This document shows positions 5,839 through 47,792 of a stretch of DNA of 50,800 nt, in pieces. The translations under genes and the position numbers were made by a program. The DNA lies in IMG/VR virus record IMGVR_UViG_2563366874_000012, one strand, 5' to 3'. Positions within the stretch are counted from its first letter, which is position 1. Every line of letters starts with the position of its first letter. Under the pieces are notes generated by a model that saw only the letters and a program-made list of their open reading frames with translations, had not been told where the DNA came from and searched no databases. The DNA comes from a virus. Taxonomy: Duplodnaviria > Heunggongvirae > Uroviricota > Caudoviricetes.

Positions 5839-6009
5839 TTAAAGTTCATGTGCCATCTGGTCTTTTTCGGCACAAGCTTCACTGCAATATTTTCTCGGTT
5901 CGTCTTTTGATAAAATCCCGTGCATGAAGTGAAGCATTCTTTCAATAGCTTTGCTTTCTTCAACGTCTTTTTTGCAAAGGTGGTAAGCACATTTTATTTT
6001 CTTAGTCAT
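5839..6009 (-). CDS. ydaE: Small Cys/His-rich (zinc-binding type) protein YdaE-like
   Basis: 56-aa [59 protein letters not shown]; start overlaps kilR stop by 1 nt (TGATG). Confidence 0.6.
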   Translation of the reverse strand: MTKKIKCAYHLCKKDVEESKAIERMLHFMHGILSKDEPRKYCSEACAEKDQMAHEL

Positions 6010-6230
6010 CACCATGACTCCGCCTTTACAGGTAAACCATCACAACCGAGGAAGACTTTAATCATGCGGTCAGTAATGCATGTTTTTGTGGTCAGGTTAC
6101 GAATATATAGTTTTCGCTTTTTAATATTGTTTGCCGAGGCAATATATGTCCGGCCTTCATGAAGAACATAATCGCCAGGAGTCACACACTGACGTGGTAT
6201 TTCATCAGTTCCGAAGTGATGTGCAATCAT
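6009..6230 (-). CDS. kilR: KilR cell-division inhibitor (FtsZ-targeting kil protein)
   Basis: 73-aa [52 protein letters not shown]...; Rac gene order. Confidence 0.75.
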
Positions 6231-6671
6231 AATTATCTCCATTTTTACAAATGAATTTTGTTGATGCGGTGCCTGGTGCCTCCAGGTGACTGCAACCAGT
6301 TAACAATTACAGTCGGCTTTCCCACCCAAACCAATAAGGACTAACATGACTTTTAACTGTGCCACGTGCGCTTAGCCGCATTCACCGCATCACAAAATTC
6401 ACTTTAAAAAGGGCGGACATCAGCCGAACTTCAAGAAAAAAACTGATGCCGCCAGGACTACACACAGCAATGTCGTTATTTACAACCGGAGGCGCACTCC
6501 CACCATTTAAATTTAACAGACAAGACCGACTCTTTATGGATATCGGAAATGCGCCTTCGTGTTGTGCCCGGTTTTATTTCACCACCTCCGGGCTTCGGTG
6601 GTCTCGGCTATACCCCTACAGCGAGAGCTTGTGTTAACATTTCAATACCCTTACAGTTGAGAGTTATTGAT

Positions 6672-7160
6672 ATGTTGGATGTATTTACTCCATTGTTGAA
6701 ACTTTTTGCTAACGAGCCACTCGAAAGACTTATGTATACGATTATCATTTTTGGTCTCACTCTCTGGCTGATACCGAAAGAGTTTGCTGTCGCATTCAAT
6801 GCTTATACTGAAATACCCTGGCTCTTTCAGATTATCGTTTTTGCCTTTTCTTTCGTGGTCGCTATTTCCTTCTCAAGATTGCGAGCACATATTCAAAAGC
6901 ATTATTCATTGCTACCAGAGCAACGAGTATTGCTTCGTTTATCTGAGAAAGAAATCGCTGTATTTAAAGATTTCCTTAAAACAGGAAATCTTATTATCAC
7001 TTCTCCTTGCCGTAACCCGGTTATGAAAAAATTAGAACGGAAGGGCATCATTCAACATCAGAGTGATAGCGCAAACTGTTCTTATTATCTCGTCACCGAA
7101 AAATACTCCCACTTTATGAAGTTATTCTGGAACAGCAGGAGCAGGCGTTTTAATCGTTAG
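6672..7160 (+). CDS. sieB: Superinfection exclusion protein SieB
   Basis: 162-aa membrane protein MLDVFTPLLKLFANEPLERLMYTIIIFGLTLWLIPKEF...; located between kil and the immunity region. Confidence 0.8.
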   Translation: MLDVFTPLLKLFANEPLERLMYTIIIFGLTLWLIPKEFAVAFNAYTEIPWLFQIIVFAFSFVVAISFSRLRAHIQKHYSLLPEQRVLLRLSEKEIAVFKDFLKTGNLIITSPCRNPVMKKLERKGIIQHQSDSANCSYYLVTEKYSHFMKLFWNSRSRRFNR

Positions 7161-12551: not shown

Positions 12552-13325
12552 TTAGAACTGTTCATTGCCATCGAGGTTAGGTAGCATAATTTTTTCAATC
12601 AAGGCGAGAGCCTTTTTGTCCCGGTCAGCGAAGTATTTCGGGGCATATTGCGGCAACCAAATATTGTTAAAATGTTCTTTGAAATCTGCTAAATATTCAT
12701 TTGGGTACAGCCTTGCAGGGTATACGCGACCATCGGGATATTCATGGTCATAGGTAGGGAATGTTTTGGGTTCTACGTTTCTATTATCTCTTAACCATTG
12801 TGAAAATACTCTTCCTTGTGAAATGTCAGGAACCATTTTTTCTGGGAGTGTGTACCCTGCTTGTTCAAGAGGTGCAACCAAGTTGAATGTCAGTTCATTA
12901 AGAATAGAAAAGTGCGTGTGAGGAATTCTACTACGATTAACCATGTACCGTTTTAAATGTACAGGCATTTCTGCTGTAGTTCTTTCCCCTGACATCCATT
13001 CACGAACCCATCTTGAAACCTGGACTGCAAATTTGGGCGATAGCCACTGCGCTAGATTAATAGCGATGTCAGGATGCACCCATGTCCCTTGGTTTTCAGG
13101 TCTTCCACCTTTAAATGATTGAATTAACTCCGATATGGGAATTCCCATATCGCGTGATAATTCGTCAAAAAACTCTTGAGTAGTTTTGAGTCTAGTGTAA
13201 TCAGAGAGCAGTTTGCCCGCAGTTCTACACATTGATGTGGCGTTTATGTAACCATCTTTGGCACGTAAATGTATTATTTCGCCGTCAATTTCACGAGAAA
13301 TCAAAGATAATTGAAAGGATGTCAT
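12552..13325 (-). CDS. KilA-N domain protein (antirepressor-like DNA-binding N-terminus)
   Basis: 257-aa ORF MTSFQLSLISREIDGEIIHLRAKDGYINATSMCRTAGKLLSDYTRLKTTQEFFDEL, typical KilA-N N-terminus. Confidence 0.65.
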   Translation of the reverse strand: MTSFQLSLISREIDGEIIHLRAKDGYINATSMCRTAGKLLSDYTRLKTTQEFFDELSRDMGIPISELIQSFKGGRPENQGTWVHPDIAINLAQWLSPKFAVQVSRWVREWMSGERTTAEMPVHLKRYMVNRSRIPHTHFSILNELTFNLVAPLEQAGYTLPEKMVPDISQGRVFSQWLRDNRNVEPKTFPTYDHEYPDGRVYPARLYPNEYLADFKEHFNNIWLPQYAPKYFADRDKKALALIEKIMLPNLDGNEQF

Positions 13326-15864: not shown

Positions 15865-16154
15865 TGGTGGATTTACGTAAAGCGGCGCGGGGGCAGATGT
15901 GCACCGTCAGAATTCCTGGCTACTGCAATCACGATCCGGAAACGTCTGTGCTGGCGCATTACCGACTGGCGGGAACGTGCGGAACAGCGACAAAACCACA
16001 CGATATGCAGGCGGCGATTGCCTGTAGCTCATGCCACGATCTAATCGACGGGCGGGTAAAAACCAGCGATTACACCAAAGAAGAATTACGCCTGATGCAT
16101 GCAGAAGGTGTTTTTCGCACACAAGAAATCTGGAGAAAGGAGGGATATTTGTGA
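15864..16154 (+). CDS. YbcO-like DUF1364 protein (Cys/His metal-binding, putative nuclease)
   Basis: 96-aa ORF MVDLRKAARGQMCTVRIPGYCNHDPETSVLAHYRLAGTCGTATKPHDMQAAIACSSCHD, resembling recalled DLP12 YbcO. Confidence 0.6.
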   Translation: MVDLRKAARGQMCTVRIPGYCNHDPETSVLAHYRLAGTCGTATKPHDMQAAIACSSCHDLIDGRVKTSDYTKEELRLMHAEGVFRTQEIWRKEGYL

Positions 16155-16693
16155 TTTACCCAACGAATACAGGAAAAAGCGGAGAACACCTTCGTCTCGC
16201 CACGCTGGAAAGTGTCTGGATTCAGGGCAAACTGCGTATGTGGGGGCGCTGGTCGTATATTGGCGGTGGCAGGTCAGGAAATATGTTCAATCAGTTGTTG
16301 GCATCCAAAAAATTGACGAAAACAGCCATCAATGAAGCCCTGCGCAGAATGAAAAAAGCGGGAATAGAGAAAGCTGAGCTGGAAGCGTTTTTGCGAGAGA
16401 TGATCAACGGCAAGCAAAAGAGCTGGCTGGCGCATTGTACTGATGCAGAGGCGTTATGTATTGATCGAGTCATAAGTGAGGTGCTGGCAGAGCATCCTGG
16501 ATTGATTAGTGTCCTCCGGCAACGGTATGAAGGACGGGGGATGACTAAGCGCAAAATGGCTGAATTGCTAAATGATGCACATCCTGAGTGGTGTTTTAGC
16601 ACATGCGAAAAGCGAATTGCTAATTGGTTGGCTGTTGCTGAGTATGCCCTATATATTCCCATGCGAGAATCATTTGCTCAAAAAATAGCTTGA
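16151..16693 (+). CDS. Late-gene antiterminator Q-like protein
   Basis: 180-aa ORF from GTG overlapping the upstream stop (GTGA); Cys/His-containing; followed by promoter-like element and short-transcript terminator (PR'/tR' architecture); call is largely positional. Confidence 0.55.
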   Translation: MIYPTNTGKSGEHLRLATLESVWIQGKLRMWGRWSYIGGGRSGNMFNQLLASKKLTKTAINEALRRMKKAGIEKAELEAFLREMINGKQKSWLAHCTDAEALCIDRVISEVLAEHPGLISVLRQRYEGRGMTKRKMAELLNDAHPEWCFSTCEKRIANWLAVAEYALYIPMRESFAQKIA

Positions 16694-16718: not shown

Positions 16719-16778
16719 TCCGGTATGCTTCGCAAAGCTGTATCGCGAGGCGAACCAAGCGCATGAACTTTACCAGAA

Positions 16779-16805
16779 CCCGCCATTGAGCGGGTTTTGT
16801 TGTTT
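16779..16805 (+). terminator. Intrinsic terminator (tR'-like)
   Basis: CCCGC-cattga-GCGGG hairpin followed by TTTTGTTGTTT. Confidence 0.55.
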
Positions 16806-16914: not shown

Positions 16915-17484
16915 ATGAGAGAACTACCTAAAGATTATTTTTTAGGAGTAGATGATGAGCTCGTCGATTATCTTGAAAAACAAGGGGAAGAGACGATACG
17001 AGAGATTCATCTTTCTAACAAAACCAATGTTGAGAATGGATACAAACTTCTGAACATTCAGATTGTTGGAATTGGTTCATCTTTTTTATTGCTGACACAG
17101 AAAACTAATTTCGATTTTCTCACCGCCGGAATTACCTCATTTACATTACTATGGACATGGTGCGCCATTTACTTGGTATGTACTGGTTTATCTGTGAAGG
17201 TTAGGGGCCTGATCAATGCCCCTCCTGATCATATATATCATGAAAAATATAAGGATATGGAGCCCTCGAGCTTTAAAATATTCGCTGATGCAGGATATTT
17301 AGGACCTGATAAGTTATTGCCGCTTATACGAAGGTATCGCCTTGTTGACTTGAGTGATACAGCAAGAGAGTTACTGTTGGAAAATGAGAAAATCCGCACG
17401 AGTCTCGATAAAGCAAGGATGTATACCATCCTTGCTCCGGTAGCGGCGATGTTTATCTCGGCTGTTTTTTTATATGTTCAATGA
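16915..17484 (+). CDS. Uncharacterised membrane protein (moron between Q and lysis genes)
   Basis: 189-aa ORF, GGAGGTGAG SD; hydrophobic segments LLNIQIVGIGSSFLLL, FLTAGITSFTLLWTWCAIYLVCTGL and C-terminal MYTILAPVAAMFISAVFLYVQ; visibly AT-rich. Confidence 0.5.
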   Translation: MRELPKDYFLGVDDELVDYLEKQGEETIREIHLSNKTNVENGYKLLNIQIVGIGSSFLLLTQKTNFDFLTAGITSFTLLWTWCAIYLVCTGLSVKVRGLINAPPDHIYHEKYKDMEPSSFKIFADAGYLGPDKLLPLIRRYRLVDLSDTARELLLENEKIRTSLDKARMYTILAPVAAMFISAVFLYVQ

Positions 17485-17614
17485 CTGAGTCGGCAGAATC
17501 TCCAACAAAAACACGACGTGTAGCAAAGTCTGTAGTACTTTGTGTTGGAGTTGGTTTTGGTGCCACGGGTTGCTGAGGTTTATTTTCACCTTGTGGTTTG
17601 TTTTTTTCAGACAT
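17453..17614 (-). CDS. Possible 53-aa hydrophilic small protein convergent with the moron gene
   Basis: MSEKNKPQGENKPQQPVAPKPTPTQSTTDFATRRVFVGDSADSVIEHIKKQPR; AAGAGG SD 8 nt upstream; 3' end overlaps the moron 3' end by 32 nt. Confidence 0.3.
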   Translation of the reverse strand: MSEKNKPQGENKPQQPVAPKPTPTQSTTDFATRRVFVGDSADSVIEHIKKQPR

Positions 17615-17708
17615 AAAAATCCTCTTTGTTTGAATTGTTACTTTTGGCGATTTAACGATATCAAACACGAGTATATACCGCCAGAAGCTTAATCTGGCAC
17701 TCCATCTG

Positions 17709-17733
17709 GCCCCGGCATGTCCCGGGGCTTTTT
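17709..17733 (+). terminator. Intrinsic terminator upstream of the holin gene
   Basis: GCCCCGG-catgtc-CCGGGGC hairpin followed by TTTTT. Confidence 0.55.
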
Positions 17734-18054
17734 CGTTGTTAGGCTCTGGAAACATCCTCGACTTCTTGTTAGCAAGCCTGAGAGCCTGAATCTTACACTT
17801 AGCACCATCCGAACTCTCGGAGGTGAGGCTTATGAAAATGCACAATGCCCCTCATTCCTGGCCTGACTTACTGGAACTCTTACAAAGTTGGTGGCGTGGA
17901 GATACGCCGCTGGGTGCAGTGGTTATGTCAATTATTATGGCTGGTTTGCGCATTGCCTATTTTGGCGGTGGCGGCGGCTGGAAACGAAAAACGCTTGAGA
18001 TTCTGCTTTGTGGTGCTCTGACGCTGACCTTTGCATCCGCGCTTGGATTTGCCC

Positions 18055-18960
18055 CTATATTTCCAGACATCTGTTATCACTTAACCCATTACAAGCCCGC
18101 TGCCGCAGATATTCCCGTGGCGAGCGATAACCCAGCGCACTATGCGGATGCCATTCGTTATAATGCTCGAACGCCTCTGCAAGGTTCTTTGCTGCCGTTA
18201 ACCCGTCTGGTTTGGGCATGATACTGATGTAGTCACGCTTTATCGTTTTCACGAAGCTCTCTGCTATTCCGTTACTCTCCGGACTCCGCACCGCCGTGTT
18301 CTTCGGTTCAAGTCCCAACATCCGGGCGAACTGGCGTGTTTCATTAGCCCGGTAGCATGAACCATTATCCGTCAGCCACTCCACTGGAGACGACGGAAGA
18401 TCGTTGCCGAAGCGGCGTTCCACCGCTCCCAGCATGACGTCCTGTACTGTTTCACTGTTGAAGCCGCCGGTAGTGACCGCCCAGTGCAGTGCCTCACGAT
18501 CACAGCAGTCCAGCGCGAACGTGACACGCAGTCTCTCTCCGTTATCACAGCAGAACTCGAACCCGTCAGAGCACCATCGCTGATTGCTTTCTTTCACGGC
18601 CACTCTGCCTGTATGTGCCCGTTTCGATGGCGGTACAGCAGGTTTTCGCTCAAGCAACAGCGCATTCTGGCGCATGATCCGGTAAACACGTTTGGCATTG
18701 ATCGCAGGCATACCATCAAGTTCTGCCTGTCTGCGAAGCAGCGCCCATACCCGACGATAACCATACGTTGGCAGCTCTCCGATAACATGGTGTATACGGA
18801 GAAGCACATCCGTATCATCAGTGTGACGACTGCGGCGGCCATCCATCCAGTCATCGGTTCGTCTGAGAATGACGTGCAACTGCGCACGCGACACCCGGAG
18901 ACAACGGCTGACTAAGCTTACTCCCCATCCCCGGGCAATAAGGGCGCGTGCGCTATCCAC
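18055..18960 (-). CDS. insD: IS2 transposase OrfB (InsD)
   Basis: 301-aa [49 protein letters not shown]... with DDE integrase-type core. Confidence 0.9.
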
Positions 18961-19283
18961 TTTTTTGCCCGTCCATATTCAACGGCTTCTTTGAGGAGTT
19001 CATTTTCCATCGTTTTCTTGCCGAGCAGGCGCTGGAGTTCTTTAATCTGCTTCATGGCGGCAGCAAGTTCAGAGGCAGGAACAACCTGTTCTCCGGCGGC
19101 GACAGCAGTAAGACTTCCTTCCTGGTATTGCTTACGCCAGAGAAATAACTGGCTGGCTGCTACACCATGTTGCCGGGCAACGAGGGAGACCGTCATCCCC
19201 GGTTCAAAGCTCTGCTGAACAATTGCGATCTTTTCCTGTGTGGTACGCCGTCTGCGTTTCTCCGGCCCTAAGACATCAATCAT
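18918..19283 (-). CDS. insC: IS2 OrfA (InsC) HTH protein
   Basis: 121-aa [59 protein letters not shown]... Confidence 0.9.
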
Positions 19284-19512
19284 CTGTTCTCCAATGACTA
19301 GTCTAAAAACTAGTATTAAGACTATCACTTATTTAAGTGATATTGGTTGTCTGGAGATTCAGGGGGCCAGTCTAGCGCTTGAGTATGTCGGATGGCCTAA
19401 ATCACTTTCTGTTGCCATTGGTGGTGGGGTGGGGCTGATTGGTGTTGATGCTATTCGTGGTGCGGCAATGAGGGTCATCGGTAACAAGTTCGGTGCCCAT
19501 AAGGAGTAATTA

Positions 19513-19989
19513 ATGCAGACACTTAATTCCCAGCGTAAAGCTTTCCTTGATATGGTGGCATGGTCAGAAGGAACAGATAACGGACGGCAGAAAACCAGAA
19601 ATCACGGTTATGATGTTATTGTCGGTGGCGAACTGTTCACTGATTACTCCGATCACCCCCGCAAACTTGTCACGCTAAATCCGAAACTCAAATCAACAGC
19701 CGCTGGACGTTACCAGCTTCTTTCACGCTGGTGGGATGCCTACCGCAAGCAACTTGGCCTGAAAGATTTTTCTCCAGAAAGTCAGGATGCTGTAGCGCTG
19801 CAGCAGATTAAAGAGCGTGGCGCTTTGCCGATGATTGATCGCGGTGATATCCGTCAGGCTATCGACCGTTGCAGCAATATATGGGCTTCACTGCCGGGCG
19901 CTGGTTATGGTCAGTTCGAGCATAAGGCTGACAGTCTGATTGCAAAATTCAAAGAAGCTGGCGGAACGGTCAGAGAGATTGAGGTATGA
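19513..19989 (+). CDS. Endolysin, lambda R-type lytic transglycosylase
   Basis: 158-aa [56 protein letters not shown]..., near-identical by eye to lambda R; AAGGAG SD. Confidence 0.9.
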
Positions 19990-20450
19990 GCAGAGTAACC
20001 GCGATTATCTCCGCTCTGGTTATCTGCATCGTCGTCTGCCTGTCATGGGGTGTTAATCATTACCGTGATAACGCCATCGCCTACAAAGAACAGCGCGACA
20101 AAAATGCCAGAGAACTGAAGCTGGCGAACGCGGCAATTACTGACATGCAGATGCGTCAGCGTGATGTTGCTGCGCTCGATGCAAAATACACGAAGGAGTT
20201 AGCTGATGCGAAAGCTGAAAATGATGCTCTGCGTGATGATGTTGCCGCTGGTCGTCGTCGGTTGCACATCAAAGCAGTCTGTCAGTCAGTGCGTGAAGCC
20301 ACCACCGCCTCCGGCGTGGATAATGCAGCCTCCCCCCGACTGGCAGACACCGCTGAACGGGATTATTTCACCCTCCGGGAACGACTGGTAATGATGCAGG
20401 CCCAACTTGAAGGTGCTCAGCAATACATAACCGAGCAGTGTTTAAAGTAA
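19986..20450 (+). CDS. Rz inner-membrane spanin
   Basis: 154-aa [48 protein letters not shown]...; start overlaps R stop (ATGA). Confidence 0.85.
20206..20391 (+). CDS. Rz1 outer-membrane lipoprotein spanin, embedded in Rz in the +1 frame
   Basis: 61-aa [64 protein letters not shown] with lipobox LVVVGC and Pro-rich core. Confidence 0.8.
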
Positions 20451-22182: not shown

Positions 22183-22974
22183 ATGAGCGAGAAATTAAAG
22201 ATAGTCTATCGCCCATTACAAGAATTGTCACCGTATGCGCACAACGCCAGGACGCACAGTACTGAGCAGGTGGCACAACTGGTAGAAAGTATTAAGCAAT
22301 TCGGCTGGACTAATCCGGTGCTGATTGACGAAAAGGGCGAAATTATTGCGGGTCACGGTCGTGTTATGGCGGCTGAAATGCTCAAAATGGATTCTGTTCC
22401 GGTCATTGTTCTGTCTGGCCTGACGGATGAGCAGAAAAAGGCGTACCGCCTGGCAGATAATCGCCTGCCGATGAATGCTGGCTGGGATGAAGATCTGTTG
22501 CGGATGGAGCTGTCGGACCTAATCAATGCTGATTTTGATGTCTCCCTGACAGGCTTCATCCCGACAGAAATTGATGAACTGTTGACGGATGTTTTGCCCG
22601 GTACAGGAAATGAGGAGGAGCCGTATACGACGAAAATTGATACGCCTGTTTATGAGCCGTCGGGCGGTAAACCGGATATCAGTGAACTGTACGACGATAC
22701 GAAAACTCAGGAGCTGATCAGCCGGATACGTTCGGCGTCCCTTGAGCCTGATATTGAGAAATTCCTCCTGTGTGCGGCAGAACGTCACACGGTGTTTAAT
22801 TTCAGCAGAATTGCGGACTATTACGCTCACGCCCCCTCTGAAATTCAGTGTTTTTTCGAGGAGTCGGCGCTGGTGATCATTGATTATCAGCAGGCTATTG
22901 AAAATGGATTTGTCCGGATGACGCAGCGCATGGTGGAGATCATGCATGGTGGTGAGGAGGAGGAATATGCGTGA
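22183..22974 (+). CDS. ynaK: ParB-like nuclease domain protein (YnaK-like)
   Basis: 263-aa ORF MSEKLKIVYRPLQELSPYAHNARTHSTEQVAQLVESIKQFGWTNPVLIDEKGEIIAGHGRVMAA (ParB N-terminal type motif); follows trkG as in Rac. Confidence 0.7.
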   Translation: MSEKLKIVYRPLQELSPYAHNARTHSTEQVAQLVESIKQFGWTNPVLIDEKGEIIAGHGRVMAAEMLKMDSVPVIVLSGLTDEQKKAYRLADNRLPMNAGWDEDLLRMELSDLINADFDVSLTGFIPTEIDELLTDVLPGTGNEEEPYTTKIDTPVYEPSGGKPDISELYDDTKTQELISRIRSASLEPDIEKFLLCAAERHTVFNFSRIADYYAHAPSEIQCFFEESALVIIDYQQAIENGFVRMTQRMVEIMHGGEEEEYA

Positions 22975-23899
22975 TGATTTTTGCGCCTTTATTCTGACTC
23001 ACGGGCGACCGGACAAAGTTCTGACTTACCGGACGTTGCGTCGTGCTGGCTATACCGGGAAAATTTTTATCGTTGTTGATGATGAAGATAAGACACGGCA
23101 TCAGTACATGGCTGAATTTGGTGAACAGGTGCTGGTGTTTTCCAAAGCCGATATCGCCAGTCGTTTTGACGAAGCCGATAATTTCTGTGACCGCCGCTCA
23201 ATTTTTTACGCCCGTAATGCCTGTTTCGACCTGGCAAAACTGGTCGGGTGTAAATACTTCATTCAGCTCGATGATGATTATCACGAGTTCCAGTTTCGGG
23301 TGGATCGCAACTATGACCAGGCCTATTTTCCGATAAGGAAACTGGATGCGATCCTTTCTGAAATGCTGGCGTACTACGAATCAATACCTGCTCTTTCCAT
23401 CGCTATGTCGCAGGGCGGGGATTTTCTTGGTGACAATGGCGGCCATGCTTCGTGGGTGAAACGCAAGGCAATGAACAGCTTTATCTGTTCGGTTGATCGA
23501 CCGTTCTCATTCATGGGGCGCATTAACGAGGATGTGAATACGTACACGAATCTCGGTCGCTGTGGTGAATTGTTTATGACGATCGGTGCTGTCCAGTTAG
23601 GGCAGAAACAGACGCAGAAAAACAGCGGCGGAATGACCGAGCTGTATCTGGATTCCGGAACCTACGTTAAAAGTTTTTACTCCGTCATGTATGCGCCGTC
23701 GTGCGTAAAAATCTCACTGATGGGTGCCAGCCATAAACGCATTCACCATCAGGTCACCTGGAACAACGCTGCAGTAAAAATCCTTCACGAAAAATACAGG
23801 AAGAAGACACCCTGCATATCAATGGGGGTGACAAATGATTCCGTATTCGAAAGTCGAGTCTCTGGCAGCGTGCCGGATGACTGCACAACAAATCGCTGA
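22967..23899 (+). CDS. Hypothetical protein with glycosyltransferase-A-like features (YdaY-like)
   Basis: 310-aa ORF MRDDFCAFILTHGRPDKVLTYRTLRRAGYTGKIFIVVDDEDK...YFIQLDDDYHEF (DxD-like motifs); GAGGAGG SD; overlaps ynaK end by 8 nt; fold assignment is a guess. Confidence 0.5.
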   Translation: MRDDFCAFILTHGRPDKVLTYRTLRRAGYTGKIFIVVDDEDKTRHQYMAEFGEQVLVFSKADIASRFDEADNFCDRRSIFYARNACFDLAKLVGCKYFIQLDDDYHEFQFRVDRNYDQAYFPIRKLDAILSEMLAYYESIPALSIAMSQGGDFLGDNGGHASWVKRKAMNSFICSVDRPFSFMGRINEDVNTYTNLGRCGELFMTIGAVQLGQKQTQKNSGGMTELYLDSGTYVKSFYSVMYAPSCVKISLMGASHKRIHHQVTWNNAAVKILHEKYRKKTPCISMGVTNDSVFESRVSGSVPDDCTTNR

Positions 23900-40430: not shown

Positions 40431-43400
40431 ATGGGTAAAGGCAGCAGTAAGGGGCATACCCCGCGCGAAGCGAAGGACAACCTGAAGTCCACGCAGCTGC
40501 TGAGTGTGATCGATGCCATCAGCGAAGGGCCGGTTGAAGGTCCGGTGGATGGATTAAAAAGCGTGCTGCTGAACAGTACGCCGGTGCTGGACAGTGAGGG
40601 GAATACCAATATATCCGGCGTCACGGTGGTGTTCCGGGCCGGTGAGCAGGAGCAGACACCGCCGGAGGGATTTGAATCCTCCGGCTCCGAGACGGTGCTG
40701 GGTACGGAAGTGAAGTACGACACGCCGATTACCCGGACCATCACGTCGGCAAACATCGACCGTCTGCGCTTTACCTTCGGTGTGCAGGCACTGGTGGAAA
40801 CCACCTCAAAGGGGGACCGGAATCCGTCGGAAGTCCGCCTGCTGGTTCAGATACAGCGTAATGGTGGCTGGGTGACGGAAAAAGACATCACCATTAAAGG
40901 CAAAACCACCTCACAGTATCTAACATCGGTGGTGGTGGGTGACCTGCCGCCGCGCCCGTTCAATATCCGGATGCGCAGGATGACGCCGGACAGCACCACA
41001 GACCAGCTGCAGAACAAAACGCTCTGGTCGTCATACACCGAAATCATCGATGTGAAACAGTGCTACCCGAACACGGCACTGGTCGGCGTACAGGTGGATT
41101 CGGAGCAGTTCGGCAGCCAGCAGGTGAGCCGTAATTATCATCTGCGCGGGCGTATTCTGCAGGTGCCGTCGAACTATAACCCGCAGACTCGGCAATACAG
41201 CGGTATCTGGGACGGAACGTTTAAGCCAGCATACAGCAATAACATGGCCTGGTGTCTGTGGGATATGCTGACCCATCCACGCTACGGCATGGGGAAACGT
41301 CTTGGTGCGGCGGATGTGGACAAATGGGCGCTGTATGTCATCGGCCAGTACTGCGACCAGTCAGTGCCGGACGGCTTTGGCGGCACGGAGCCGCGCATCA
41401 CCTGTAATGCGTACCTGACCACACAGCGCAAGGCGTGGGATGTGCTCAGTGATTTCTGCTCGGCGATGCGCTGTATGCCGGTATGGAACGGGCAGACGCT
41501 GACGTTCGTGCAGGACCGACCGTCGGATAAGGTGTGGACCTATAACCGCAGTAATGTGGTGATGCCGGATGATGGCGCGCCGTTCCGCTACAGCTTCAGC
41601 GCCCTGAAGGACCGCCATAATGCCGTTGAGGTGAACTGGATTGACCCGGATAACGGCTGGGAGACGGCGACAGAGCTTGTTGAAGATACGCAGGCCATTG
41701 CCCGTTACGGTCGTAACGTCACGAAGATGGATGCCTTTGGCTGTACCAGCCGGGGGCAGGCACACCGCGCCGGGCTGTGGCTGATTAAAACGGAGCTGCT
41801 GGAAACGCAGACCGTGGACTTCAGCGTGGGCGCAGAAGGGCTTCGCCATGTACCGGGCGATGTCATTGAAATCTGTGATGATGACTATGCGGGTATCAGC
41901 ATCGGCGGGCGCGTGCTGGCGGTGAACAGCCAGACGCGGACGCTGACGCTCGACCGTGAAATCACGCTGCCATCCTCCGGCATCACGCTGATAAGCCTGG
42001 TTGACGGACAGGGGAATCCGGTCAGCGTGGAGGTTCAGTCCGTCACCGACGGCGTGAAGGTAAAAGTGAGCCGTGTTCCTGGCGGTGTTGCTGAATACAG
42101 CGTATGGGGGCTGAAGCTGCCGACGCTGCGCCAGCGACTGTTCCGCTGCGTGAGTATCCGTGAGAACGACGACGGCACGTATGCCATCACCGCCGTGCAG
42201 CATGTGCCGGAGAAAGAGGCCATCGTGGATAACGGGGCGCACTTTGACGGCGACCAGAGCGGCACGGTGAATGGTGTCACGCCGCCAGCGGTGCAGCACC
42301 TGACCGCCGAAGTCACCGCAGACAGCGGGGAATATCAGGTGCTGGCGCGATGGGACACGCCGAAGGTGGTGAAGGGCGTGAGCTTTATGCTTCGTCTGAC
42401 CGTGGCAGCGGATGACGGCAGTGAGCGGCTGGTCAGCACGGCCAGGACGACGGAAACCACATACCGCTTCACGCAACTGGCGCTGGGAAACTACAGGCTG
42501 ACAGTCCGGGCGGCAAATGCCTGGGGGCAGCAGGGCGATCCGGCATCGGTATCGTTCCGGATTGCCGCACCGGCAGCGCCGTCGCGGATTGAGCTGACGC
42601 CGGGCTATTTTCAGATAACCGCCACGCCGTATCTTGCCGTTTATGATCCGACGGTACAGTTTGAGTTCTGGTTCTCGGAAAAGCGGATTGCGGATATCAG
42701 GCAGGTTGAAACCACAGCCCGCTATCTTGGCACGGCGCTGTACTGGATAGCTGCCAGTATCAATATCAAGCCGGGCCATGATTATTATTTTTACATCCGC
42801 AGTGTGAACACCGTTGGCAAATCGGCATTCGTGGAGGCTGTTGGCCAGCCGAGTGATGATGCATCCGGCTATCTGGATTTTTTCAAAGGAGAGATAGGGA
42901 AAACCCATCTGGCTCAGGAGTTGTGGACGCAGATTGATAACGGTCAGCTTGCGCCTGACCTGGCTGAAATCAGGACGTCCATTACGGATGTCAGTAATGA
43001 AATCACGCAGACCGTCAATAAGAAACTGGAAGACCAGAGTGCAGCGATCTAGCAGATACAGAAGGTTCAGGTTGATACAAATAATAACCTGAACAGCATG
43101 TAGGCTGTGAAGCTGCAGCAGATGCAGGACGGACGCCTTTATATCGCGGGTATTGGTGCCGGTATTGAGAACACCCCTGACGGCATGCAGAGTCAGGTGC
43201 TGCTGGCGGCAGACAGGATTGCGATGGTTAATCCTGCGAATGGCAACACAAAGCCGATGTTTGTTGGTCAGGGCGATCAGATATTCATGAACGAAGTGTT
43301 CCTGAAATATCTGACGGCTCCCACCATTACCAGCGGCGGTAATCCTCCGGCATTTTCCCTGACACCGGACGGGCGGCTGACGGCGAAAAATGCCGATATC

Positions 43401-43910
43401 AGCGGTAGCGTGAATGCGAACTCCGGGACGCTCAACAACGTCACGATTAACGAGAACTGTCGGGTTCTGGGAAAACTGTCCGCGAACCAGATTGAAGGCG
43501 ATCTCGTTAAAACAGTGGGCAAAGCTTTCCCCCGGGACTCCCGTGCACCGGAGCGGTGGCCATCAGGGACCATTACCGTCAGGATTTATGACGATCAGCC
43601 GTTTGACCGGCAGATTGTTATTCCAGCGGTGGCATTCAGCGGTGCCAGACATGAACGGGAGAATAGCGATACTTATTCGTCATGCCGCCTGATAGTGAAG
43701 AAAAACGGGGCTGAAATTTATAACCGAACGGCGCTGGATAATACGCTGATTTACAGTGGCGTTATTGATATGCCTGCCGGTCACGGTCACATGACGCTGG
43801 AGTTTTCGGTGTCAGCATGGCTGGTAAATGACTGGTATCCCACAGCAAGTATCAGCGATTTGCTGGTTGTGGTGATGAAGAAAGCCACCGCAGGCATCAG
43901 TATCAGCTGA
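40431..43910 (+). pseudogene. Host specificity / central tail fibre protein J interrupted by two in-frame TAG codons
   Basis: One reading frame: 873 codons, TAG (43050-43052), 16 sense codons (QIQKVQVDTNNNLNSM), TAG (43101-43103), then 269 further codons [23 protein letters not shown]...; the track's downstream ORF starts at GTG 43107 with no SD. Confidence 0.8.
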
Positions 43911-44630: not shown

Positions 44631-44999
44631 GTGGAGTGGATATGGCAGCAGTAAAAATCTCAGGTGTGCTGAAAGATGGTGCGGGAAAACCAATACAGAA
44701 CTGCACTATTCAACTGAAGGCAAAGCGTAACAGCACCACGGTACTGGTGAACACGGTGGCCTCTGAAAATCCGGATGAAGCCGGGCGTTACAGCATGGAT
44801 GTTGAGCATGGCCAGTACAGCGTCATCCTGCTGGTTGAAGGTTTTCCGCCTTCACATGCCGGGACCATTACCGTCTATGAAGGCTCCAGACCAGGTACGC
44901 TGAATGATTTTCTCGGTGCCATGACGGAAGATGATGTCATGCCGGAGGCATTGCGTCGTTTTGAGGCAATGGTGGAAGAAGTGGCACGCAACGCCGAAG

Positions 45000-45650
45000 C
45001 CGCCTCTCAGAGCGCAGCGGCGGCAAAGAAATCCGAAACTGCAGCGGCATCATCGAAGAACGCGGCGAAAACCTCAGAAACGAATGCAGCTAATAGTGCA
45101 CAGGCGGCAGCGACCTCAAAGACTGCATCGGCAAACTCCGCGACAGCAGCCAAAAAATCAGAAACCAACGCGAAAAACAGTGAGACAGCCGCAAAGACGA
45201 GCGAAACCAACGCAAAGTCCAGCCAGACGGCAGCGAAAACCAGCGAAACGAATGCTAAAGCCAGTGAAACTGCGGCAAAAAACAGCCAGGCTGCAGCAGC
45301 TGAAAGCGAGAGCGCGGCAGCCGGTTCTGCGACTTCAGCAGCTGGATCAGCAACTGCTGCGGCTAACAGCCAGAAAGCTGCGAAGACGAGTGAAACTAAC
45401 GCAAAGTCCAGCCAGACGGCAGCGAAGACCAGCGAAACGAATGCCAAAGCCAGTGAAACTGCGGCGAAAAGCAGTCAGGATGCAGCGGCCCAAAGCGAGA
45501 GTGCCGCAGCCAGTTCTGCAAGCGCGGCGGCTGCTTCTGCCACTGCATCAGCTAACAGTCAAAAAGCAGCAAAAACCAGTGAAACCAACGCAAAGGTGAG
45601 CGAAACAGCGGCTGCGAACTCAGCGAAAGCATCGGCAGCAAGCCAGACGG
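45000..45650 (+). repeat. In-frame tandem repeat region within the tail fibre gene
   Basis: Reiterated AAKTSETNAK(S/A)S(E/Q)TAAK units; about 120-bp near-identical DNA segments around 45213-45330 and 45393-45510. Confidence 0.6.
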
Positions 45651-46763
45651 CAGCTAAAGCAAGCGAAGATGCAGCCAGAGAGTACGCAAGCCAGGCTGCG
45701 GAGCCGTATAAATATGTCTTACAGCCGCTGCCTGATGTGTGGATACCATTTAACGATTCGCTGGATATGATTACGGGCTTTTCGCCATCATATAAAAAAA
45801 TTGTTATTGGTGACGATGAAATAACGATGCCTGGCGACAAGATTGTTAAGTTTAAACGTGCATCGAAAGCAACCTATATTAACAAATCTGGTGTGCTGAC
45901 AGAGGCTGCCATTGACGAGCCACGATTTGAACGTGATGGCCTGCTTATTGAGGGGCAAAGAACAAACTACATGCTCAATTCGGAAAGCCCTGCCAGTTGG
46001 GGGCGATCGTCAAATATGGATGTGCCCGAAACAGGGACGGATAATTTTGGTTTTACCTATGGAAAGTTTGTCTGCAACGATTCTCTGATTGGGCAAACCT
46101 CAGCCATTAATATGGCATCAATTGCTGCAACAAAGTCAGTTGATGTCTCAGGCGATAATAAACACGTGACAACCTCATGTCGTTTTAAAACAGAACTGCA
46201 GGTAAGGTTGCGTATCCGGTTTGATAAATATGACGGTAGCGCAACAACTTTTCTTGGTGATGCGTATATTGATACACAAACGCTTGAAATTAATATGACA
46301 GGCGGTGCTGCCTCAAGGATTACAGCGAGAGTCAGAAAGGACGAAGCTACCGGATGGATTTTTGCAGAGGCAACAATTCAGGCAATTGATGGGGAGTTAA
46401 AAATAGGCTCTCAGATACAGTATTCTCCTAAGCAGAGCGGGGCAACCGTATCTGGTGACTATATTTATCTGGCCACCCCACAAGTAGAAGATGGGCCTTG
46501 TGTATCATCTTTTATTATATCAGGAGCGACGGCGGCGACCCGCGCAAGCGATATAGTTACAGTTCCAATTAAGAATAATCTTTATAATCTTCCTTTTACG
46601 GTTCTTTGTGAGGTACATAAGAACTGGTATAAAACGCCAAATGCAGCGCCACGTGTTTTTGATACCGGCGGTCATCAAACCGGAGCGGCTATTATTCTTG
46701 GCTTCGGTCGTTCAACAGATTACGACGGATTTCCTTATTGCGATATTGGGTAATGACTCCAAC

Positions 46764-47267
46764 TTATTGATAGTGTTTTATGTTCAGATAATGCCCGATG
46801 ACTTTGTCATGCAGCTCCACCGATTTTGAGAACGACAGCGACTTCCGTCCCAGCCGTGCCAGGTGCTGCCTCAGATTCAGGTTATGCCGCTCAATTCGCT
46901 GCGTATATCGCTTGCTGATTACGTGCAGCTTTCCCTTCAGGCGTGATTCATACAGCGGCCAGCCATCCGTCATCCATATCACCACGTCAAAGGGTGACAG
47001 CAGGCTCATAAGACGCCCCAGCGTCGCCATAGTGCGTTCACCGAATACGTGCGCAACAACCGTCTTCCGGAGCCTGTCATACGCGTAAAACAGCCAGCGC
47101 TGGCGCGATTTAGCCCCGACATAGCCCCACTGTTCGCCCATTTCCGCGCAGACGATGACGTCACTGCCCGGCTGTATGCGCGAGGTTACCGACTGCGGCC
47201 TGAGTTTTTTAAGTGACGTAAAATCGTGTTGAGGCCAACGCCCATAATGCGGGCAGTTGCCCGGCAT
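46764..47267 (-). CDS. insB: IS1 InsB transposase ORF
   Basis: 167-aa ORF ...[43 protein letters not shown]... Confidence 0.9.
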
Positions 47268-47461
47268 CCAACGCCATTCATGGCCATATCAATGATTTTC
47301 TGGTGCGTACCGGGTTGAGAAGCGGTGTAAGTGAACTGCAGTTGCCATGTTTTACGGCAGTGAGAGCAGAGATAGCGCTGATGTCCGGCGGTGCTTTTGC
47401 CGTTACGCACCACTCCGTCAGTAGCTGAACAGGAGGGACAGCTGATAGAAACAGAAGCCAC
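47186..47461 (-). CDS. insA: IS1 InsA
   Basis: 91-aa [94 protein letters not shown]. Confidence 0.9.
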
Positions 47462-47792
47462 TGGAGCACCTCAAAAAAACCATCATACGCTAAATCAGTA
47501 AGTTGGCAGCATCACCCGATATTGGAGGAGCTAACAGACGGGTAAACGAAAACGCATCGCTTGAAAAAATGGTTATGGGGATGCGTGTAAAGTCAGAGCA
47601 GTCTACGTGCTCAGTAAGTAACGGGCATATATCCAGCGAAACAAAAACCACATGGTCCTGTATTCAGAACACCGCAATTATCCGTATTGGAGGCCAGACT
47701 ACAGCCGGGTTACGTCATTTATTTGGTCATGTCAGGAATTTCAGAATATGGCACAAGGCATTGACTGATGCTCAGGTGGGGGAGTCAATCTA

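Follow-up and report, generated by a model that had tools for sequence, protein, structure and literature searches.

A full-length Rac-like lambdoid prophage carries, inside its holin gene, a complete copy of IS2 flanked by a 5-bp target duplication. The prophage fills the window, by which we mean the whole stretch of DNA analysed (50,800 nt). In our judgement the insertion is very probably one hit in ordinary prophage decay, inherited clonally, and not demonstrably a targeted adaptation. Events of this type are textbook and already known as a common route to a disabled resident prophage, although literature searches for IS2 in holin or prophage lysis genes gave no direct precedent, and what they did retrieve dealt with IS elements and the decay of prophages in general terms. 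Cryptic prophages are enriched in IS elements, and the evolution of prophages has been described as 'rapid inactivation, slower degradation' (PMC13492144). The interest of the locus is that of a clean, dated case in which a prophage, complete in other respects, was disarmed step by step, in holin, tail tip and tail fibre.

Prophage context

The window begins inside intR; in the relative NZ_CP023820, ttcA lies directly next to this same intR. The gene order runs through intR, xisR, ralR, recT, recE, kilR, sieB, repressor/cro-like genes and ydaT/U/V to a Q-like antiterminator, and from there through a 189-aa membrane protein, the holin, the endolysin, Rz/Rz1, trkG, ParB/TAGT and the terminase to the head and tail genes. 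The Rac gene set is entirely present and full length, with 98-100% protein identity to annotated relatives. Rac of E. coli K-12 has the same modules (intR, xisR, ralR, recT, recE, kilR, sieB, ydaF, ydaT/U/V, Rz and then trkG) and has been struck by IS elements, as the window prophage has. The copy in the window, however, is full length and has its head, tail and lysis modules complete, whereas K-12 Rac has lost most of its late genes, its lomR is split by IS5 and its rzpR is a pseudogene.

The IS2 element and its insertion site

The element, its genes and its flanks are as follows.

18044..19374, minus strand: complete IS2, 1331/1331 identity to IS2A, with inverted-repeat arms (NF006918)
18918..19283, minus strand: IS2 orfA (InsA, 121 aa), equal to K-12 InsC1/InsA; PF01527 (HTH_Tnp_1)
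18055..18960, minus strand: IS2 orfB (InsD, 301 aa, integrase core), equal to K-12 InsD1; rve domains
18039..18043, no strand: left target duplication GCGCT, from slicing; single-copy in the empty site
19375..19379, no strand: right target duplication GCGCT, from slicing

A complete IS2 of 1331 bp had been proposed at 18044-19374 by an earlier sequence-only reading, together with a flanking GCGCT repeat. Slicing of the window bore out the element to the base, on the minus strand, and the repeat was found on both sides; against IS2A as annotated in E. coli K-12 MG1655, 0 of 1331 positions differed. The element starts with TGGATTTGCCCCTATATTTCC and ends with GGGGGCCAGTCTA. Its IRR end is at 18044 and its IRL end at 19374, so that the transposase genes run antisense to the phage late operon. 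A repeat finder recovered the terminal inverted repeats as two arms, 18039-18084 and 19333-19378, in agreement with the imperfect repeats of about 41/42 bp described as IRR and IRL of IS2 (PMC3299598). This was the one set of IS2 ends in the window, where chance would be expected to give none. The two reading frames overlap, orfB lying in the -1 frame relative to orfA, and an A6G slippery heptamer is present at 18960-18966. This is IS2 position 409, the same frameshift site as in K-12 IS2A. The orfB product scored 727 bits against the NCBIfam model NF006918 for the IS2 transposase TnpB (cut-off 597). In length, terminal repeats, paired reading frames with A6G, and 5-bp duplication the element is thus a regular IS2. 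Its complete identity to IS2A suggests a copy that could still be active. Compared with K-12 IS2A, the element is wholly alike and the insertion site alone is new.

Removal of IS2 and one repeat copy restores the holin frame, as the first reading had stated. Among the matches listed, the excised site (865 bp, made in silico) agrees at every base with the uninterrupted site of complete E. coli genomes (100% identity), which answers the comparison with uninterrupted holins of relatives that had been proposed as a check. With this query, 218 records were retrieved at an identity of at least 99%, and 249 covered at least 80% of its length. In complete E. coli genomes the uninterrupted gene is annotated as 'phage holin, lambda family', and GCGCT is present as a single copy in the empty site. 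Since the exact empty site exists, the event was a plain insertion that duplicated 5 bp, for which this is the strongest possible confirmation. A match of two 5-bp flanks would occur by chance at a rate of 1/1024; the argument rests on the exact empty site instead.

Distribution of the allele

The window is 100% identical to scaffold KB732322.1 of E. coli KTE21 over 20.4 kb. The IS2 junction is found in at least five other assemblies, two of them complete chromosomes, a lower bound that holds for the matches listed, with 17 similar places besides. These extra carriers came to light by looking up the neighbouring 189-aa protein, and they rule out that the allele is private to KTE21. In CP164482.1, a complete chromosome, the entire IS2 is present together with its two junctions, and 20.5 kb align with 0 mismatches; the junction is also found with 0 mismatches in BGSG01000012.1, CATRGS010000013.1 and ERZ21883657. 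Contigs of three draft assemblies extend past the junction by 53-127 nt of IS2, all of them matching, and two further contigs stop at the junction. OZ040122.1 (5,342,221 bp) carries the fusion protein of holin and IS2, which is recorded on three contigs only. Over 11 kb the members of the lineage differ by 0-11 bases. The allele arose once and is inherited within an E. coli clone.

The KTE21 assembly is a draft made of scaffolds, and IS copies are classic places of misassembly. A misplacement of IS2 during scaffolding had indeed been named by the sequence-only reading as the finding that would refute it. Such an artefact is extremely improbable: the duplication is perfect, the empty site is exact, the window sequence holds zero runs of N, and the identical junction is present in five other assemblies, of which CP164482.1, with both of its junctions, excludes misassembly.

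The KTE21 junction was absent from 5426 complete RefSeq genomes, and it was not found in the GTDB species representatives either. In the protein look-up the allele looked private, since draft assemblies break at IS2 and PGAP drops the pseudogene. The lesson for annotation is that a protein-based look-up can make an allele that many strains share seem confined to a single one. As a clonal marker, the IS2 junction itself is handy for recognising one lineage of E. coli.

The restored and the interrupted holin

The holin gene is now present in two parts, which are listed here with the reading frame that spans the left junction and a structure upstream of the start.

17832..18043, plus strand: holin gene 5' part, nt 1-212, from slicing and hydropathy, with predicted transmembrane domains (TMD) 1 and 2
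19380..19509, plus strand: holin gene 3' part, nt 213-342, with predicted TMD3 and a charged C-terminal tail
17832..18221, plus strand: open reading frame as now read, 129 aa, composed of 71 holin residues and 58 from the IRR end of IS2
17803..17825, plus strand: RNA stem-loop over the GGAGGUG Shine-Dalgarno, from the fold of 17795-17865

The 5' part comprises codons 1-70 and two bases of codon 71 and opens with ATG-AAA-ATG (M-K-M), whereas the 3' part is now separated from its own start codon by IS2. Joining 17832-18043 to 19380-19509 gives an open reading frame of 342 nt and 113 aa with the M-K-M start. The restored protein scored 139.3 bits against TIGR01594 holin_lambda (cut-off 55.05), covering profile positions 1-107 of 107, and 96 bits against PF05106 (cut-off 23.8, E=1.9e-27), and it also matched phrog_126 holin/anti-holin. 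The product of the 5' part alone covers positions 1-72 of the 107 in TIGR01594. Kyte-Doolittle hydropathy gave three hydrophobic peaks, centred at about 30-39, 60-67 and 84-97, which are the predicted TMDs. The break after residue 71 coincides with the end of the second predicted transmembrane segment, and the window therefore lacks an intact hole-forming reading frame at this locus. GenBank lists the 129-aa fusion as 'lambda family phage holin [E. coli KTE21]'. By descent the locus belongs to the lambda-family holins; in this clone it is a pseudogene.

The description of this gene as a lambda-S-like holin that keeps the M-K-M motif stands as far as the family (TIGR01594, PF05106) and the motif are concerned; the likeness is one of family level only, with 25% identity to lambda S over a full-length alignment. 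Both proteins belong to the TIGR01594 equivalog and to PF05106, both genes lie 3' of Q in the order S-R-Rz/Rz1, and lambda S likewise has the M-K-M codons, a stem-loop over its Shine-Dalgarno and three hydrophobic segments. In lambda S (S105/S107) these codons (Met1-Lys2-Met3) form a dual start that yields an antiholin and a holin under the control of the stem-loop; for the window gene such a use of both starts would be a prediction. Some members of the TIGR01594/PF05106 family begin with MPHN and do without M-K-M. The fold of 17795-17865 had an energy of -20.8 kcal/mol (z = -2.5), and the stem-loop sits just 5' of AUG1, a position that matches the sdi stem-loop of lambda S when the lambda fold is compared. 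By analogy, it would be an sdi-like regulator of the holin starts. Related at the DNA level are the holin genes of the Shigella phages SfV, SfII and SfIV (85-88% identical) and those of the GenBank phage records ON470609/14/16 (100% identical), all of them copies without the insertion. In ON470614 the gene order Q-S-R-Rz-trkG is as in the window.

We propose that IS2 entered the holin of this full-length Rac-like prophage by copy-out/paste-in transposition, as is normal for the IS3 family, and that the insertion, in duplicating 5 bp, severed the holin after residue 71. The remaining product, devoid of TMD3 and of the cytoplasmic tail, would form no membrane holes, by extension from lambda S, for which the Young laboratory reportedly found that hole formation needs all three TMDs. 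One might object that the 129-aa fusion could retain some activity, as an antiholin-like inhibitor or as a leaky pore, since the M-K-M start, TMD1, TMD2 and the translation signals are kept, in which case the locus would be altered and not null. We consider this very unlikely, given the three TMDs that lambda S is said to require and a 58-residue tail that is arbitrary read-through into the end of IS2.

If the insertion abolishes hole formation, as we propose, lysis of an induced cell would fail as in a lambda S-null mutant. An R-type soluble endolysin stays in the cytoplasm when no functional holin is present. Since R is soluble and needs the holin to reach the wall, the induced cell should not lyse. 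The phenotype to be expected would be that of a Sam7-type S-null lambda, with the difference that inactivation is there due to a nonsense codon and here to an IS element after residue 71.

Lysis cassette neighbours and late transcription

The genes around the holin that bear on lysis are the following.

16151..16693, plus strand: Q-like late antiterminator, DUF1133 type, 180 aa; phrog_753, 100% identical to relatives
19513..19989, plus strand: endolysin of lambda R type, 158 aa, full length; lambda R identity and phrog_90
19986..20450, plus strand: Rz i-spanin, 154 aa, full length; PF03245, E=5.6e-53
20206..20391, plus strand: Rz1 o-spanin, 61 aa, inside Rz in the +1 frame; PF06085, E=2e-19

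The order is Q (16151-16693), holin, R, Rz and Rz1, with the holin directly upstream of endolysin and spanins. That the endolysin and Rz/Rz1 are intact, as had been claimed, holds true: all are full length, and a relative with an intact holin has the same endolysin and Rz proteins (100% identity). Identity to the lambda proteins is 95% for R and 93% for Rz. Neither Pfam nor NCBIfam returned a family for the endolysin, the identity of which was settled by lambda R and the PHROG match. Its own Shine-Dalgarno, AAGGAG, is at 19498-19503. Comparison with lambda Rz1 showed that the lipobox and the proline-rich stretch of Rz1 are kept.

The Q-like antiterminator presumably drives the late transcript, which now has to cross IS2. 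A search for intrinsic-terminator-like sites on the plus strand within IS2 found none. By analogy with lambda, the 1.3 kb of antisense IS2, which is untranslated, is probably no obstacle to Q-modified polymerase, and R, Rz and the late genes may be expressed. Each of R, Rz and Rz1 still has a ribosome-binding site of its own and would be made if the modified polymerase crosses the element. Rho-dependent polarity may act on R, Rz and the head and tail genes.

An activation of R by an outward promoter of IS2 was considered as well and rejected. The outward -35 of IS2 sits in IRR (PMC3299598), and in the window IRR faces away from R. Nor does the hexamer in the flank, GCGCGG, qualify as a -10 on inspection.

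Other lesions in the same prophage

To survey the prophage for lesions, the annotated proteins of two intact relatives were compared with the window. All coding sequences compared were full length and free of stops except three: the holin gene, the tail-tip gene J and the tail-fibre gene.

40431..43910, plus strand: tail-tip gene J, with in-frame TAG at 43050-43052 (codon 874) and 43101-43103 (codon 891)
~46749..47516, minus strand: IS1, 768 bp, in the tail-fibre gene (44981-47790); transpos_IS1

In the relatives codon 874 of J is CAG (Gln) and codon 891 is TGG (Trp); the damage to J is a second lesion, independent of the IS2 insertion. The IS1 in the tail-fibre gene is flanked by a target duplication of 8-9 bp, CGATATTG(G). 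OZ040122.1 and CP164482.1 have in common the amber at codon 874 of J and both IS1 junctions. KTE21 has two ambers in J, of which the one at codon 874 is common to the IS2-bearing genomes. Strains with the same Lom allele but with intact J and tail fibre exist. The clone inherits holin::IS2 together with the J amber and the tail-fibre IS1, and the presence of the J ambers and stf::IS1 alongside holin::IS2 means that its prophage is multiply defective. The statement of the sequence-only reading that only the timing and pore component was knocked out is therefore valid for the four-gene lysis cassette; it does not extend to the prophage, with its J ambers and its IS1 in the tail fibre.

Recurrent insertions in the holin gene

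The insertion of the window, at nt 212 of the 342 nt of the holin gene, has two independent counterparts, which emerged from the protein cluster of the holin and from its homologues. In GCA_022977615.1 an IS2 is inserted after nt 265 in the same orientation, and an ISEc52-like element of the IS3 family is inserted after about nt 271 on eight contigs of metagenomic and NCBI origin. The latter two sites lie at most 7 bp apart, in the run GGTGGTGGGGTGGGGCTG. Orientation differs: antisense for the two IS2 copies, sense for the ISEc52-like element. Three insertions in the same holin could reflect a hot spot, recurrent selection or chance. The sample consists of these three events, and detection is biased towards 3' insertions since early truncations are too short to be called or clustered. 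By a rough estimate, one to a few IS2 hits per target of 342 bp are expected by chance among public carriers. It is rather doubtful that IS3-family elements repeatedly strike the 3' third of the holin above the rate of neighbouring late genes, be it as a hot target or through recurrent selection. If they did, the recurrent hits would offer a small testable case for separating the target preference of IS elements from selection on lysis genes.

A hot spot would imply that IS2 and other IS3-family elements prefer the 3' third of the holin owing to local DNA structure and independently of fitness. The three positions, nt 212, 265 and about 271, would be in line with this, as is the finding that IS2 inserts non-randomly, with regional hot targets that have been tied to DNA curvature (PMC3299598, its references 65, 66); the hot target of P1 and hemB are among the non-random targets (PMC3299598, its references). 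With three events in all, a detection that favours 3' insertions and orientations that differ, we consider such a preference unlikely here.

The sequence-only reading had seen in the locus a selection against prophage-induced lysis while the rest of the cassette was retained. According to such an adaptive domestication, loss of the holin would spare hosts upon spontaneous induction, null alleles would be selected and cargo such as trkG would be kept. That the allele persists in a clone which several independent projects have sampled may be taken as a hint in this direction, as may the three independent IS insertions into one holin in different strains. Theory also holds that inactivation lowers the cost of prophage carriage (PMC13492144). 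If selection were at work, lysis-null Rac-like prophages would be favoured, with trkG and other cargo kept. Several observations speak against it. The junctions at nt 265 and about nt 271 were absent from the 5426 complete RefSeq genomes, so that all three junctions are missing there, whereas about 250 of these genomes have the intact site. The losses in J and in the tail fibre do not prevent the death of the host and point to non-specific decay. Insertions of IS elements elsewhere in the late region were seen in 3 of the 15 best matches among relatives, and one to a few hits are, as roughly estimated above, expected by chance. That R, Rz and Rz1 are retained tells nothing in this respect: IS2 and the holin halves are without substitutions and the clone shows 0-11 differences over 11 kb, which leaves no time for decay. 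With an insertion too recent for its neighbours to have decayed and with other lesions present, the claim of selection with retention of the cassette is unsupported, and we regard adaptive domestication as improbable, somewhat more so than a hot spot. While the observation behind the sequence-only reading is confirmed and its structural reading right, its interpretation is overall only partly supported, and ordinary decay of a clonally inherited prophage is the explanation we retain.

A 71-aa 'partial' holin that ends at the IS2 site (P0005, 547 blocks) was examined as a possible source of further insertions and discarded, since it represents another allele (GCTCTT) from another phage. Its contigs just stop at this point, and the N gap of one scaffold resumes inside R, which indicates a repeat or mosaic boundary rather than an IS insertion.

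Tail genes

The window, which matches E. coli strain KTE21 at 100% identity, carries lesions in two of its tail genes:

40431-43910, gene J (tail tip), with in-frame amber codons at 43050-43052 (Gln874) and 43101-43103 (Trp891)
44981-47790, side tail-fibre gene
46749-47516, minus strand, IS1 (768 bp, encoding InsA and InsB) within that tail-fibre gene

The ambers cut the tail-tip protein J to 873 of its 1159 residues. The one at Gln874 was common to KTE21 and its clone-mates OZ040122.1 and CP164482.1, which share the IS2-holin junction, whereas the one at Trp891 was found in KTE21 only. Since the J of KTE21 differs from that of the two clone-mates at 33 positions, the comparison suggests a recombination tract in this gene. 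The IS1 that interrupts the tail-fibre gene is flanked by the duplication CGATATTG(G) and is common to the same clone (OZ040122.1, CP164482.1).

Other mobile elements were observed in relatives' copies of the prophage. Several relatives have an IS200-like element (Y1 transposase) in the interval that separates lom from the tail-fibre gene. Among them are the two clone-mates OZ040122.1 and CP164482.1 (6797-7255, locus coordinates), as well as two further loci; KTE21 lacks the element. In the copies of other strains (the NZ_CP135719.1 locus, 5925-6905 in locus coordinates, and three further database hits), either IS5 is inserted close to the KilA-N gene or the late region has ISEc31/IS3-family insertions, so that IS hits are common in this prophage family.

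Contig ends in a related holin

In the assemblies examined, contigs with a related holin of a different phage (allele GCTCTT) stop exactly at holin nt ~213 (six loci), and 547 of the collection's blocks list the shortened product. The contigs appear to end there because co-resident prophages have a repeat or mosaic boundary in common; the agreement of this position with the IS2 site in the window may be a chance coincidence.

Accessory genes

Between Q and the holin, two genes occupy a moron position, with a terminator-like hairpin on each side (16774-16799 and 17708-17729):

16915-17484, plus strand, conserved 189-aa predicted membrane protein (phrog_11870), with no Pfam or NCBIfam match
17456-17668, minus strand, antisense 71-aa ORF (phrog_14506)

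Candidate defence and modification genes lie on either side of this region:

12555-13325, minus strand, KilA-N protein
22183-23896, plus strand, ParB/Srx N-terminal-domain protein, then a 'GREB1-related' protein of 310 aa (Pfam TAGT)

The precomputed Pfam matches of the KilA-N protein include BstA_C, which suggests a prophage-borne BstA-type abortive-infection defence gene. The ParB/Srx-TAGT pair, located between trkG and the small terminase, may constitute a DNA-modification module. In GCA_022977615.1, the relative with a separate IS2 insertion in its holin, adenosine-deaminase, Ham1-like and SIR2_2 genes (1-1519, locus coordinates) replace the KilA-N/Hok segment upstream of the TehB-like gene, and this region looks like a variable slot for defence-like cargo.
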